DNA of 64,000 nucleotides from Escherichia coli (GTDB lineage: Bacteria; Pseudomonadota; Gammaproteobacteria; Enterobacterales; Enterobacteriaceae), in assembly GCF_003334305.1 (NCBI RefSeq), contig NZ_QOWS01000022.1; one strand, written 5' to 3'. The notes beneath the pieces are model-generated. The model ran no database searches. It was not told the origin of the DNA and was given only the letters and a program-made list of their open reading frames with translations. A program made the translations under genes and the position numbers. Below are positions 55,761-60,264 of the stretch, piece after piece. Position 1 is the stretch's first letter. Every line of letters starts with the position of its first letter.

Positions 55761-56039
55761 ATGAAACGTAACCTGATAAAGGTGGTAAAAATGAAGCCTT
55801 ATTTTGCTGCTTTGATGTTATCAGTCTCTGTTCTTCCTGCTTATGCTGGTCCGCTCGGTACTGCTGATAAAGCCGACCTACCGCAAAGCAATGTCTCCAG
55901 CCCAATGATGGCCCAGTCGCTCAGGCAACCAGACCTGCAACCGATATCGACGGACAGGAAGACAGAATGTTTTCGCCTTTACACACCAGATCGTAAACCG
56001 GGGGTGAACTGCGTTCCTGATGGCTCAACAGGTCATTAA
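55761..56039 (+). CDS. Small secreted hypothetical protein (possibly yjbT)
   Basis: 92-aa ORF; an internal ATG at 55791 with RBS aggtgg gives an 82-aa protein with a signal peptide (MKPYFAALMLSVSVLPAYA). Confidence 0.5.
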   Translation: MKRNLIKVVKMKPYFAALMLSVSVLPAYAGPLGTADKADLPQSNVSSPMMAQSLRQPDLQPISTDRKTECFRLYTPDRKPGVNCVPDGSTGH

Positions 56040-56085
56040 GAATGAGGGTGCCAGTGAGTGCGAAAACTGGCACCTTTCCCATGAC

Positions 56086-58182
56086 TTAGCGGAAATTTAC
56101 GCTACGGTCGCTGGTCATATCATACAACTGGAACTTACGCCCAAGTTGCTGACCACCGTCACGCGTCAGCGGCGTCCAGCCAATCGCCGCACGGCTGCGT
56201 GTCGGGCCAGACGAGAAGAGATCCAACGGTACCGAGACATACACGCCTTTGGTGAAGTCCCCTTCGCCGTACTCCTCTTTCGAAACGTTGGTGATCGTGG
56301 CATAGCCGCCAACCACCACGCCGCTATCAAAGCGTTTGGCGATCTCCAGCGTGCCGCCTTTATCCCCTGCCAGATACTGCCCGACGCTGGCTTTCACCAA
56401 CACGTCCTGGGCGAAAGATGGCGTCCAGTAGGCGGTCAGATGTCCGGTTTTCACGCTGTAGTCGGTGAATTTCATCATATCTTTTGCACTACGCCAGTCG
56501 CGCTGTTTAACGTAGTTGGCATCCAGACCAAACGCCCAGTTACTGTCCAGCGGACGATACAACACTTCGGCCCCCGCACCGCCAAACATGGTTTCGAGAT
56601 AACCTCCATAGACCTGACCGTAGAAGCCGTTGCCCAGATGCTGGAAGTAGTTGGCTTGCAGGTTATTCACATAGACATCGTTCTGCACATACTCGCGCAC
56701 ATGGGTACGAACGCGCGGTAAGTGCGAGTCCTGCGGCGGATTGGTGTAGTTAAACTTGTCGTAGTTGTTGGCAAGATTTGCAAACAGGCTGCCGGTGGTC
56801 AGCAGATGGTCCGTCAGCCACAAATCTGCCGTTCCCATCACGCCCAGCTGATACATGTAAAAGTTTTCCGGGCCACCGACCGACTGGTTCAGCACCGGAT
56901 CGATGTGGAAATCAAAGCGTGATTTGTCGATATACCAGCCCTGCTCGGTGGACTGCGGAACCACTGGCTCGACGCGTTTTTGCGCCAGCTTCGTTTCGTG
57001 GCCCAACGGCTCTCCGGCGAGATGATTTTTCAGGCTGGCGACATCGGTTTCCGTCGTCACCTGCGGCATGTTAAGACGATTTTCCGTAATGCGGATCGTT
57101 TTGATCCCATCCGGCAGATCGTTCATCACGATCCGATTAGCACGGATGATCCCTTCGCGCGAATCACGATATTTCACCTGCTCGCCGGTGACATACAGCG
57201 TATCGCCTTTCGCCTGGATCTGCGGATCGGCAAGTCCGGCATTGTATTTCAACAGCGTTAACTGATTCGCCACCACCGAATGCTGCAAAATGGCATCCTG
57301 CGGCTGCGGTTGATATTGCGGGCGGGCGTTATCGTTGTAAGACGGGCGCAGATCGTTAAAGTTGGTGCGCAGCGTGACGCCAAACATAAAGGTGTTGCCA
57401 CGTTCATAGCTAAGGTTAACGTCGGCCCAATCGGTAACGCGATAAATCGCACCGACGTTAAACTTACTTTTTTGCTCCAGCTTCCCGGCAAAATCCTGCT
57501 GATAATTATTGCCTTCATACTCCAGTTTCAGGCGCAGCGGTTGCCAGGGCGTCTGGTATTCCACGCCGCCAAACAGTGAGGCAGGACCGTGGAACATCTG
57601 GCTACCGTCGATAGATCCCGCCTGTTTGTAGCTGTTATCGCGATAGCAATATTTATCACTGGCTGAACAGAGCGGATTTTTTACATTACCGCTGGTGCCC
57701 AGATATCCCCAGCCCAGGCCGAGCGTAAAATCGAACGGCCCCCAGGCTTTGCTGGCAACAAGATATTCCGCATCAAACAGCCCCGTACCGCCGATATCCC
57801 GCGCACCAACCGCCACTTGCGGCAGCCAGTAACTCTCTTCCCACAAACGCAGTTTGAGATCGAAGGCTTTATCTTTATACGTTTGATCGCCAGAGAACGC
57901 TTCGACGCTGCTGTACTGCCGGGTGCGCACGTCGGTGTAGCGCAGCGTTGTTTCCAGCCACGGGAAGAGTTGCACTGAAGCTGAGTAATAACGGTACTGA
58001 TCGTTATCGCGATAGTTCAGACTCAACTCCCCTTCCCGTGCCATACGCGCGGTGGGAGTTTGTAATAATCCTACGCCACCGAAATCCGACTGCGACGGAC
58101 CAATGGGCGCAGGATATGTTTCGCCGTAGCAAGCTGTGCTAATGCCCAGCGCCAGTAAGCTAAGCAGATGTCTTTTTTTCAT
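56086..58182 (-). CDS. yjbH: YjbH, GfcD-like outer-membrane protein of the yjbEFGH exopolysaccharide locus
   Basis: 698-aa ORF with signal peptide ending in a lipobox-like LGISTAC; start overlaps the yjbG stop. Confidence 0.92.
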
Positions 58183-58919
58183 TATTGAGGTATCCGCTGC
58201 GTCAGAGTCTGAAGAATGTCGGCGTTAAGGGCATCAGGCGTCTCACTCCAGACGGAGTCCGCGAGGCCAACATAAATAATGCTGCCGGGCATCGGCTCTA
58301 CGTGACGCTTGTTCCAGTAAGCCACCGGCGCTTTTTGCGTGCGTCCGTCCGGGTAAACCACCCACGCGTAGCTGCGATCCGCACCGCTAAGCAGGTTCTG
58401 CCCGGAGAGATAGCTCGCCACGTCGCGACCTGGAGTGAATGGCTGATTGCCAGGACGGCTGATAAGCCCGAACAGCGTGACCGTGGACGGTGGTGGCCCG
58501 ACCCACAGCGTGTAGTTGCCCTGCAACGGTGGGTTACCGCGTTCGGCAACGCGCACAATATCAGGATCAAGATTGATTTTTTGCCTGCCCGTCACTTTCA
58601 ACGCCTGAATTTGCTGGCGTAAGGCGTTAATGGCGGCGGCATCGTCGGCGCTGGAATCTGCAGCCTGTTCAGCCAGCCGTGTCAGCAACGCCTGCTGCTG
58701 ACGCAATGCTGCCGCCGTTGCCAGCTCTTCGCTAATCACCGCACCGGGCCACCAGCTGTTTGCCAGCCGCGGTTGGCCTACCAGATCGATTAAATGCTCT
58801 GCACCCGTCAGCGTTTTGGCCTCACTGCTGCCATTGCTGAACACCTTGACGGTTCCTGCCGCGAAGACCGATGACGCTCCCACACTCAAAAGCAACGCGA
58901 CAATAGTTTGTTTAATCAT
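58182..58919 (-). CDS. yjbG: YjbG, GfcC-like periplasmic protein
   Basis: 245-aa ORF with signal peptide; 4-nt overlap with yjbF. Confidence 0.92.
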
Positions 58920-59554
58920 TGTTTTGCCGCCTTGATGAGAGTGGTTTTCACCGGGAAATAATCCGCGCCGAGATACTGTTCCGACTGGCGAATTTGCCCT
59001 TCGCTGTCGATCCAGTAGCGGTTATGCCAGCGCGCCTGGTCGGTGGAGACTTCTTCGTCCAGCACGCGAACCAGGGTTTCATCGCTGCCGACCTTGACGG
59101 TATCGGTGCCATCCCATTTGAAGACTGAGCGTGCGGTGGCGTAGCGTACCTGCTGGTACTCGGTCCAGCCCATCGTGCGCGTCCATGTTGCACCATCAAC
59201 AATTTGTGCGGGTTTAATCAGTGGGTCGGCGGCAAGGTTATTCACTTCAATCAGGTTGTCGCCGCCAAGCAAAGTCTTCACCAGACGACCATGTTGTATG
59301 ACAAGAGTGGCTTGATCCTGAGTGACCCATTTTTGTTGTCCGTCTTCAGCGAAGGCCAGCACCACAAACAATTGCGGCCCGCCATTAAGCTGCATGTACT
59401 GGCTGGCGTAGGGCATATTTTGAATATCATCGTCCGTCAGCTGTACGCCTGGCGTGCCGAACAGACTGTCCCACAGTGAATTGCCCAGCTCTTTAGTCGT
59501 GGCTGAACAGGCCTGTAATAGCAGGCAGATAAGAATGAGTGCAGGTCGCTTCAC
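58916..59554 (-). CDS. yjbF: YjbF, GfcB-like lipoprotein
   Basis: Lipobox LLLQAC; GTG at 59552-59554 with upstream ggag RBS gives 212 aa; ORF track starts at GTG 59584. Confidence 0.9.
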   Translation of the reverse strand: MKRPALILICLLLQACSATTKELGNSLWDSLFGTPGVQLTDDDIQNMPYASQYMQLNGGPQLFVVLAFAEDGQQKWVTQDQATLVIQHGRLVKTLLGGDNLIEVNNLAADPLIKPAQIVDGATWTRTMGWTEYQQVRYATARSVFKWDGTDTVKVGSDETLVRVLDEEVSTDQARWHNRYWIDSEGQIRQSEQYLGADYFPVKTTLIKAAKQ

Positions 59555-59667
59555 GACTCTTCTCCAGAGGGGCAGAATAACCACACCGGAGTGTGGTTAT
59601 GGTAAATCCCTTCATACTTCAAGCCACAGATGCAATGACTCAAATTATTTTGGGGATACATACTTTA

Positions 59668-59910
59668 TTACTGGGTACTGGTGGTCGTGGTTGTGGTGGT
59701 CCCGGTATTAGAACCATCACCGCCACCGGTTGCCGCGAGCGCGACACCCACCGCCGAGCTTACGGTGCTGACGCTGGTCGCGGAGGAACTCCCCGCCGAA
59801 ACCGACGTTGCTGCCGACCCTGCCGCTTCGCCCACCTGTACAGGTGCAGCCCACGCAGAAGTCGCCGCAAGCGCAGATATGGCAAAAATGCCATACAGAA
59901 CTTTTTTCAT
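59668..59910 (-). CDS. yjbE: YjbE, GfcA-like Ala/Ser/Thr-rich secreted protein
   Basis: 80-aa ORF with signal peptide, low-complexity Ser/Ala/Gly region and a TTTTTTT run near the C-terminus. Confidence 0.9.
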
Positions 59911-60264
59911 AACAATTTCCCTTCATTGAATGAATGGAGATTTACCCAAAAACATTTCGGGCGGGATCGAGTATACACAACTAAAGCATGCGAATTACGG
60001 CGCGGGGAATTAGAGATGGGGTTTTAGGATAATTGGAATGAATATCAAATATAAGCTACAACTTATATATAAATAACATTAAAAATCATAATGTTAAAAT
60101 AAAAGTAAAAGTAATTAATCTGAGTATTTTCCGAAATCAATCACGATTAAAAATCTATTTTAGGATTAACCTCACGGTATGATTTCCGTTAAATCACAGA
60201 CAAGGGGATTTATCTGATAAAACAATGCCGACATAACGTCGGCATTGTTATTAAGGTTTTTAAA

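Follow-up and report, generated by a model that had tools for sequence, protein, structure and literature searches.

The yjbEFGH locus and its genomic context

We analysed a 64 000-nt stretch of the Escherichia coli assembly GCF_003334305.1 (contig NZ_QOWS01000022.1; hereafter the window), in which positions 55761–59910 carry yjbT on the plus strand and then yjbH, yjbG, yjbF and yjbE on the minus strand, with psiE and pgi as the flanking genes. The locus corresponds to the yjbEFGH operon already described for E. coli, which encodes an outer-membrane module induced by stress and related to the genes of group 4 capsules. As this operon belongs to the annotated core genome of the species, no new system is added here; the additions that we keep are a hairpin behind yjbE with its family-wide counterparts, an RcsAB-like box and a match to the RNA family STnc430 in the leader upstream of yjbE, and the start codon and selection pattern of yjbT. 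The genes of the locus are as follows.

55761–56039, plus strand: yjbT, small secreted protein (Pfam YjbT PF17089, E = 1.5e-65)
56086–58182, minus strand: yjbH, 698-aa outer-membrane protein (Pfam YjbH PF06082, E = 1.1e-270)
58182–58919, minus strand: yjbG, 245-aa periplasmic GfcC-family protein (Pfam GfcC_N and GfcC_C)
58916–59554, minus strand: yjbF, 212-aa lipoprotein with a GTG start (YjbF/GfcB family, Pfam PF11102, E = 6.9e-63)
59668–59910, minus strand: yjbE, secreted protein of 80 aa with a high content of Ser, Ala, Thr and Gly (Pfam YjbE PF11106, E = 5.5e-33, full length)

The program-made list of open reading frames (ORFs) contained all five at these coordinates and bore out each feature given in an earlier reading of the window made from its letters (hereafter the sequence-only reading). 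In an E. coli genome with 100% identity, RefSeq placed the five ORFs identically, in the order psiE, a ‘periplasmic protein’ (yjbT in K-12), yjbH, yjbG, yjbF, yjbE and pgi. Together with the Pfam matches, which spanned the full length, this annotation bears out the identity that the sequence-only reading had assigned, yjbEFGH plus yjbT; NCBIfam gave zero matches for all five proteins. The 5.2-kb stretch was found in 5426 of 5426 complete E. coli genomes and was 100% identical to several chromosomes.

The four co-oriented genes had been described as overlapping by 1–4 nt, and the overlaps measured 4 nt between yjbF and yjbG (ATGA) and 1 nt between yjbG and yjbH (TAATG). The yjbE–yjbF spacer was 113 nt long and the pgi–yjbE spacer 354 nt with 32% G+C, in agreement with the gap of about 110 bp and the AT-rich leader of about 350 bp given in that reading. 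For comparison, a YjbF scan with one genome per species yielded 80 Enterobacteriaceae loci (L003–L082), and the order pgi–yjbEFGH–psiE was kept in nearly all of these genomes. A word-indexed protein search with YjbF returned close relatives only; distant ones were reached by a representative search, from which eight loci with YjbF identities of 26–46% were fetched.

Relationship of the Yjb proteins to Gfc and other capsule modules

The match of YjbH to PF06082 spanned model positions 1–657 of 658, and a PDB search with YjbH gave no solved relative. In the literature, predictions give YjbH and GfcD two β-barrels with a periplasmic middle domain, the N-terminal barrel being likened to the amyloid exporter FapF and the C-terminal one resembling a polysaccharide porin, and simulations suggest a lateral gate for a lipid-anchored polymer. 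YjbG matched PF20616 (E = 1.7e-49) and PF06251 (E = 8.8e-43) as well as the solved GfcC structure (PDB 3P42, E = 2.8e-54), and YjbF matched the solved GfcB/YmcC structure (PDB 2IN5, E = 2.1e-43). The lipobox proposed for YjbF, LLLQAC, was confirmed on the sequence, where it is followed by S, and the description of YjbE as a small Ser/Ala/Thr-rich protein also stood, since Ser, Ala, Thr, Gly and Val make up 88% of the residues of its mature part.

The proteins encoded by the gfc locus of K-12 were aligned one by one with their Yjb counterparts by BLASTP. YjbH and GfcD were 65% identical over 696 aa, YjbG and GfcC 42% identical, and YjbF and GfcB 39% identical, and these alignments make GfcD, GfcC and GfcB the clear paralogues of YjbH, YjbG and YjbF, respectively. 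Between YjbE and GfcA the similarity was undetectable (BLASTP E = 65), and GfcA was not matched by the Pfam YjbE family (PF11106). YjbE, GfcA and eight distant counterparts all consist of a signal peptide, a low-complexity Ala/Gly/Ser/Thr part, a hydrophobic Gly/Ala/Val stretch, an acidic patch and a poly-Thr tail whose last residue is mostly Arg or Gln. YjbE and GfcA have a distinctive common architecture and the same gene position, with sequence homology undetected between them. The sequence-only proposal that the locus mirrors gfcABCD was accordingly upheld for YjbH, YjbG and YjbF, for the gene order and for the overlaps, and did not extend to the sequences of YjbE and GfcA.

Both modules follow the order of a small Thr-rich secreted protein, a lipoprotein, a GfcC-type periplasmic protein and a 698-aa outer-membrane protein, and gfcBCD overlap by 4 nt and 1 nt exactly as yjbFGH do. 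The gfcA–gfcB spacer of K-12 is 106 nt long and also folds into a stable hairpin, although the sequence of the yjb hairpin is unrelated to it. The two loci differ in their surroundings: gfc is followed by gfcE-etp-etk, which encode Wza/Wzb/Wzc-type proteins, whereas the yjb locus has none of them. No Wza/Wzb/Wzc-type, glycosyltransferase, polymerase or flippase genes were found in the yjb locus, which encodes envelope proteins only; on the 3′ side of yjbH the convergent yjbT is followed by psiE, on the 5′ side of yjbE lies pgi, and exporter, tyrosine kinase and phosphatase genes are not adjacent. The yjb operon also has a fixed core-genome place between pgi and psiE and is Rcs-regulated, whereas K-12 gfc has an IS1 in its promoter region, and gfc handles the O-antigen capsule according to the literature, whereas the yjb polymer is uncharacterised. 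The yjb locus is thus a paralogue of the gfcABCD module and not itself a capsule locus.

Comparable four-gene modules, the Vibrio orf1-wbfDCB genes and the Aeromonas gfcABCD homologues, have been tied to capsule or exopolysaccharide in the literature. Their likeness to yjbEFGH, taken here from published descriptions, comes with the difference that they often stand beside genes for outer-membrane polysaccharide export (OPX) and polysaccharide co-polymerase (PCP) proteins, which yjbEFGH lacks. The distant loci that we fetched likewise had the order of small ORF, lipoprotein, GfcC-type gene and YjbH-type gene, and some of them adjoin Wza/Wzc genes.

A conserved terminator-like hairpin between yjbE and yjbF

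The sequence-only reading had suggested that the yjbE–yjbF spacer may hold regulatory elements, and a conserved terminator-like hairpin was found in it, next to a repeat fragment.

59577–59600, minus strand: hairpin AUAACCACAC-UCCG-GUGUGGUUAU followed by UCUGCCCC, probable partial intrinsic terminator (attenuator), predicted
59606–59659, minus strand: ERIC-like (enterobacterial repetitive intergenic consensus) repeat fragment, inserted after the yjbE stop codon and ahead of the hairpin

The hairpin has a 10-bp stem and is stable on folding; the window and 5421 E. coli genomes each have a single copy of it. Its two 9-nt arms (TAACCACAC-NNNN-GTGTGGTTA) were identical in 80 of 80 Enterobacteriaceae loci, with flanks that vary. 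Among the 76 spacers that could be extracted, the loop was UUCG in 69, UCCG in 3 (the window included), UGCG in 3 and UACG in 1; such variation at the N of UNCG alone is a signature of sense-strand RNA. As the tail after the hairpin, most genera have UUAUUUUG, and E. coli has UUAUUCUG, in which 5 of 8 positions are U.

The ancestral yjbE–yjbF spacer is 60–65 nt long. E. coli and E. whittamii have ∼54 extra nt, which match both ends of a ∼127-nt element found at the same site in a Citrobacter locus (L036, 4814–5000). We presume this element to be ERIC from the core of that repeat. In some Citrobacter and Enterobacter genomes, repetitive extragenic palindromic (REP)-like insertions lie 3′ of the hairpin, so that repeat insertions fall on either side of the hairpin and never within it in the spacers examined.

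Terminator-like counterparts occupied the hairpin position in seven of the eight distant loci, the exception being L092. Two of them (L085 and L088) had the identical 10-bp stem after the small ORF, followed by T6GT6 in L085 and by TTT only in L088; L087 kept TAACC/GGTTA with the inner stem altered on both sides and then TATTTTTG, L086 had ATAACC..GGTTAT plus T6, and L089, L090 and L091 had unrelated canonical hairpins followed by 7 to 9 T. Judging from these loci, the family as a whole has a terminator-like element behind the small gene, which most likely acts as a leaky terminator and so keeps the small protein at a high ratio to the machinery. The frozen stem of the yjb hairpin, set against the covarying stem of the pgi terminator described below, hints at an additional sequence-specific recognition.

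Stem-loops that attenuate transcription after the major-subunit gene are known from papA-type fimbrial operons. As in the yjb operon, a stable hairpin there stands right after a small, abundantly needed first gene, with read-through into the assembly genes; the two are not homologous, and for yjb an effect on transcript ratios is predicted.

Regulatory elements in the leader upstream of yjbE

The same suggestion of regulatory elements had been made for the leader upstream of yjbE, in which we found an RcsAB-like box and a match to an Rfam family. The features of the leader are listed below.

59911–59985, minus strand: proximal leader, highly conserved, with GTTGTGTATACTCGA plus the invariant CTCCATTCATTCAATGAAGGGAAATTGTT just before the ATG
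60161–60174, minus strand: RcsAB-like box A, TGAGGTTAATCCTA, from sequence match and conservation
60121–60134, plus strand: RcsAB-like box B, TGAGTATTTTCCGA, inverted partner of box A
60221–60249, minus strand: pgi terminator hairpin, AACAATGCCGAC-GTTAT-GTCGGCATTGTT
60107–60256, plus strand: STnc430 match (Rfam RF02053, enterobacterial candidate Hfq-associated small RNA), opposite to pgi and yjbE

An alignment of 62 leaders showed conserved blocks at the pgi terminator, TTATCAGATAA, TGAGGTTAATCC(T/G)AAAA, the inverted TTTT(A/C)GGA, GTTGTGTATACTCGA and the 30 nt before the ATG. A search for an RcsB box upstream of yjbE, which the sequence-only reading had proposed as a check, led to box A. The RcsB box has been given as TN(G/A)GAN4TC(T/C)NA (PMC7913699), from which box A departs by one mismatch. 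The pattern T.[AG]G.....TC[CT].A was present in 62 of 62 leaders; its distance from the ATG was 246–277 nt in 61 leaders and 360 nt in the remaining one. Box A fits the invariant positions of the RcsAB box attributed to Wehland and Bernhard 2000; the exact RcsAB consensus with 3 mismatches had no match in the leader, where only the invariant-position pattern matched. Because that pattern is no rarer than chance across the window, the evidence for the RcsAB-like box is its conservation. Box A would place an RcsAB box upstream of the operon, as expected of a member of the Rcs regulon.

The half-site ATCC(T/G)AAA was found in the inverted arrangement in 24 of the 62 leaders. According to the literature, a T-to-C change at K-12 position 4,235,682 (−224) swept in a K-12 population selected with phage T7, and this position maps to window position 60134, the last base of box B. 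A third copy of the half-site, ATCCTAAAA, was also observed at 60021–60033 on the minus strand, ∼120 nt upstream of the yjbE ATG, and lies at the same distance in 33 of the 62 leaders.

Closer to yjbE, the GTTGTGTATACTCGA block was found in 55 of 71 leaders at ∼70 nt from the ATG and contains a TATACT −10-like hexamer at 59975–59970; this proximal block could be a promoter or an element of the 5′ untranslated region. At 59915–59942 on the minus strand, the invariant sequence before the ATG could pair UCCAUUCA with UGAAGGGA and so enclose the Shine-Dalgarno sequence in a small hairpin; this part showed no variation across the leaders.

The stem of the pgi terminator covaries, with GC to AU changes at two pairs among 52 genomes. 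Since an A-run and a T-run flank the stem in most genera, this terminator could act on transcription from both directions. Separately, the stop codon of pgi and its terminator are set apart in K-12 by a further ∼144 bases that contain REP-like repeats (L084, 109–250) and are missing at 60257–60264 of the window; the pgi–yjbE spacer is 498 nt long in K-12.

With 69.1 bits (E = 4.9e-10), the STnc430 match exceeded the family's gathering score of 47. Nine of 14 other genera also had a match, on the same relative strand, with scores of up to 158 bits in Salmonella and 164 bits in C. koseri. In the window, a promoter-like site at 60073–60100 on the plus strand stops 7 nt before the match, in a consensus promoter and terminator scan that was at chance level overall. 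The 3′ end of the match is the pgi terminator hairpin, and the RcsAB-like boxes overlap its conserved core. Since this core coincides with the boxes and with the pgi terminator, the family may reflect conservation at the DNA level. An RNAalifold-type analysis covering both strands of the region yielded neither decisive covariation nor a strand call.

Function and proposed mechanism

The literature describes the operon as activated by RcsA-RcsB and co-induced with the colanic acid genes on envelope damage, with co-induction of all four yjb genes. Overexpression of yjb is reported to lead to an exopolysaccharide distinct from colanic acid, described as uncharacterised, and loss of function turns on Rcs and gives mucoidy. 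In Salmonella, RcsA overexpression raised uronic acid only with wza or the yjb operon present. Among the paralogues, gfcABCD are required for the group 4 capsule, GfcB and GfcC bind GfcD, and GfcA has been suggested to be modified and passed to GfcD.

In the mechanism that we propose, YjbF, YjbG and YjbH would form an outer-membrane complex that translocates or anchors a surface polymer, the enzymes for which would be encoded elsewhere, and YjbE would be its abundant partner, acting as carrier, cargo or anchor. A leaky intrinsic terminator after yjbE would keep yjbE transcripts in excess over yjbFGH transcripts, the overlapping stops and starts would couple the translation of the last three genes, and Rcs control would be exerted via the conserved RcsAB-like box ∼260 nt upstream of yjbE. 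We regard this explanation as probable when taken as a whole, that is, a known operon, paralogy with gfc, an export or anchoring complex, an attenuator and Rcs control.

Several points weigh against it. The locus is without synthesis genes and its polymer is uncharacterised, and mucoidy on loss does not alone show an export role. We infer termination at the yjbE–yjbF hairpin: a simple terminator scan did not flag it, its E. coli U-tract (UUAUUCUG) is weak, and the invariance of its stem is unusual for a plain terminator, given that the pgi terminator covaries in the same genomes. The similar fold inductions reported for yjbE, yjbF and yjbG fit a leaky terminator and do not show one, and the 3′-end supplement of PMC7815308 has no entries for yjbE, yjbF or yjbT. 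The distance from the box to the promoter is uncertain as well.

Of the other explanations, it is possible, though we doubt it, that the operon is an envelope-homeostasis or capsule-anchoring module whose loss perturbs the outer membrane and thereby triggers Rcs and colanic acid, the Yjb exopolysaccharide being an indirect product. A locus free of synthesis, polymerase, flippase and Wza/Wzc genes, a polymer still described as uncharacterised, and the mutations in yjbH and in the leader that swept in T7-resistant lines according to the literature would all suit such a module; the overexpression product reported to differ from colanic acid, the dependence of the Salmonella uronic acid rise on wza or the yjb operon, and the requirement for the paralogous gfcABCD in group 4 capsule speak against it. 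We consider it unlikely that the hairpin is, rather than a terminator, a sequence-specific site: either an RNA hairpin whose bound protein stabilises the yjbE message or an operator formed by a DNA palindrome. Such a site would account for 18 of 18 stem positions being invariant in 80 genomes, next to varying flanks and a covarying pgi terminator, for the weak U-tract of E. coli, and for the exact stem being kept in two loci whose YjbF is only 38–46% identical. Yet distant relatives keep a hairpin and T-run with a different stem sequence, repeat insertions freely change the spacing to the yjbE stop codon and to the yjbF Shine-Dalgarno sequence, and the strand-specific UNCG loop of the Enterobacteriaceae is unlike a DNA palindrome. 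The DNA operator was ranked below an RNA element because of this UNCG-only loop variation and the T-runs in distant relatives.

A further proposal makes YjbE the exported cargo itself, an abundant, disordered and possibly glycosylated small protein that the system secretes or displays by way of the N-terminal, FapF-like barrel of YjbH, so that at least part of the material at the surface would be (glyco)protein; we hold this to be quite improbable. The conserved YjbE/GfcA architecture is in line with it, as are the published likening of that barrel to FapF and the suggested transfer of modified GfcA to GfcD, and a terminator-like element behind the small gene, seen across the family, is what one would expect if this component were required in large excess. 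Set against this, exit of YjbE from the cell or its glycosylation is unsupported here and in the literature examined, GfcA is annotated as an inner-membrane protein, and the C-terminal barrel has been compared to a polysaccharide porin. We give similarly low credence to its broader form, in which the small Thr-rich proteins (YjbE, GfcA and the distant counterparts) would be abundant and exported or anchored at the surface, as cargo or primer of the YjbFGH/GfcBCD machine, with their excess over the machinery set by the terminator-like hairpin behind the small gene; if true, at least part of the ‘Yjb exopolysaccharide’ would be a mucin-like (glyco)protein that is secreted. Very improbable, finally, is a role of yjbT as a functional component or regulator of yjbEFGH. 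The gene adjoins yjbH and its product is also secreted, but it is on the opposite strand and convergent on yjbH, the yjbH–psiE gap in which it lies varies from ∼100 to ∼1900 bp among genera, the YjbT family is limited to Escherichia/Shigella and Kluyvera by protein clusters, and yjbT is present in only 2 of the 80 genomes that keep yjbEFGH, those of Escherichia (L003) and Kluyvera georgiana (L065). Because of this last distribution, we concluded that yjbT is a lineage-restricted neighbour and not a component of the yjb system.

The YjbH/GfcD family is widespread. Loss of yjb recurs in evolution experiments, where it is associated with mucoidy and with resistance to phages, predators and sedimentation. 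The hairpin with its invariant stem, the RcsAB-like box found in all 62 leaders and the possible antisense-strand small RNA that crosses this box are mapped handles on the control of the operon and on the role of YjbE.

yjbT, a convergent neighbour of yjbH

The sequence-only reading had placed the small secreted ORF upstream of the operon, which did not hold: yjbT lies beyond the 3′ end of yjbH, convergent on it and 46 nt apart. The gap between the two genes contains one further feature, read off the sequence.

56047–56074, strand not assigned: hairpin GGTGCCAGT-N10-ACTGGCACC, in the 46-nt yjbT/yjbH gap

This hairpin is likely a terminator shared by the two genes, and a different hairpin occupies the same gap in Kluyvera.

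The ORF had been described as one of 92 codons with a signal peptide, possibly yjbT. Its identity agrees with the annotation and with the Pfam YjbT match, and the comparison with Kluyvera points to a shorter product. The annotated ATG at 55761 is ATA in Kluyvera, where the frame upstream is also broken, and the ATG at 55791 is kept there, preceded by the Shine-Dalgarno sequence AAGGTGG and followed by a signal peptide, MKPYFAALMLSVSVLPAYA, with G as the next residue. Because the first of these codons is not conserved in Kluyvera and the second is, the start of yjbT is probably the ATG at 55791, which would give a precursor of 82 rather than 92 codons.

In the last 26 codons of yjbT (55959–56036; TECFRLYTPDRKPGVNC(V/I)PDGSTGH, with two Cys), E. 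coli and Kluyvera differ by 14 synonymous and 2 non-synonymous changes, corresponding to pS of 0.74 and pN of 0.034 (proportions of synonymous and non-synonymous differences), compared with a pN of 0.51 in the remaining mature protein. By this synonymous/non-synonymous pattern, yjbT is real coding DNA whose last 26 codons are under strong purifying selection, the conserved part being a C-terminal Cys-bracketed peptide. The pattern suggests that the yjbT product is a secreted C-terminal disulfide-loop peptide. The AlphaFold model of YjbT was of low confidence (predicted local distance difference test score, pLDDT, of 51).

The YjbT family comprised 14 clusters among 5.8 billion proteins, several of which were frameshifted E. 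coli copies. No relatives of YjbT were found in phages, the PDB or ordinary plasmids, and its six ‘plasmid’ hits were records of 655 kb to 4.9 Mb.

Other observations around the locus

Next to psiE, xylE is annotated as frameshifted in the 100% identical strain H15 (L001, 1–493), and the copy in the window is an intact 491-aa ORF. In several genera, matches to the lysine riboswitch were found ∼2 kb upstream of pgi (L063, L074, L068, L076, L057, L047 and L072); these presumably represent the lysC leader and have no relation to the yjb operon.

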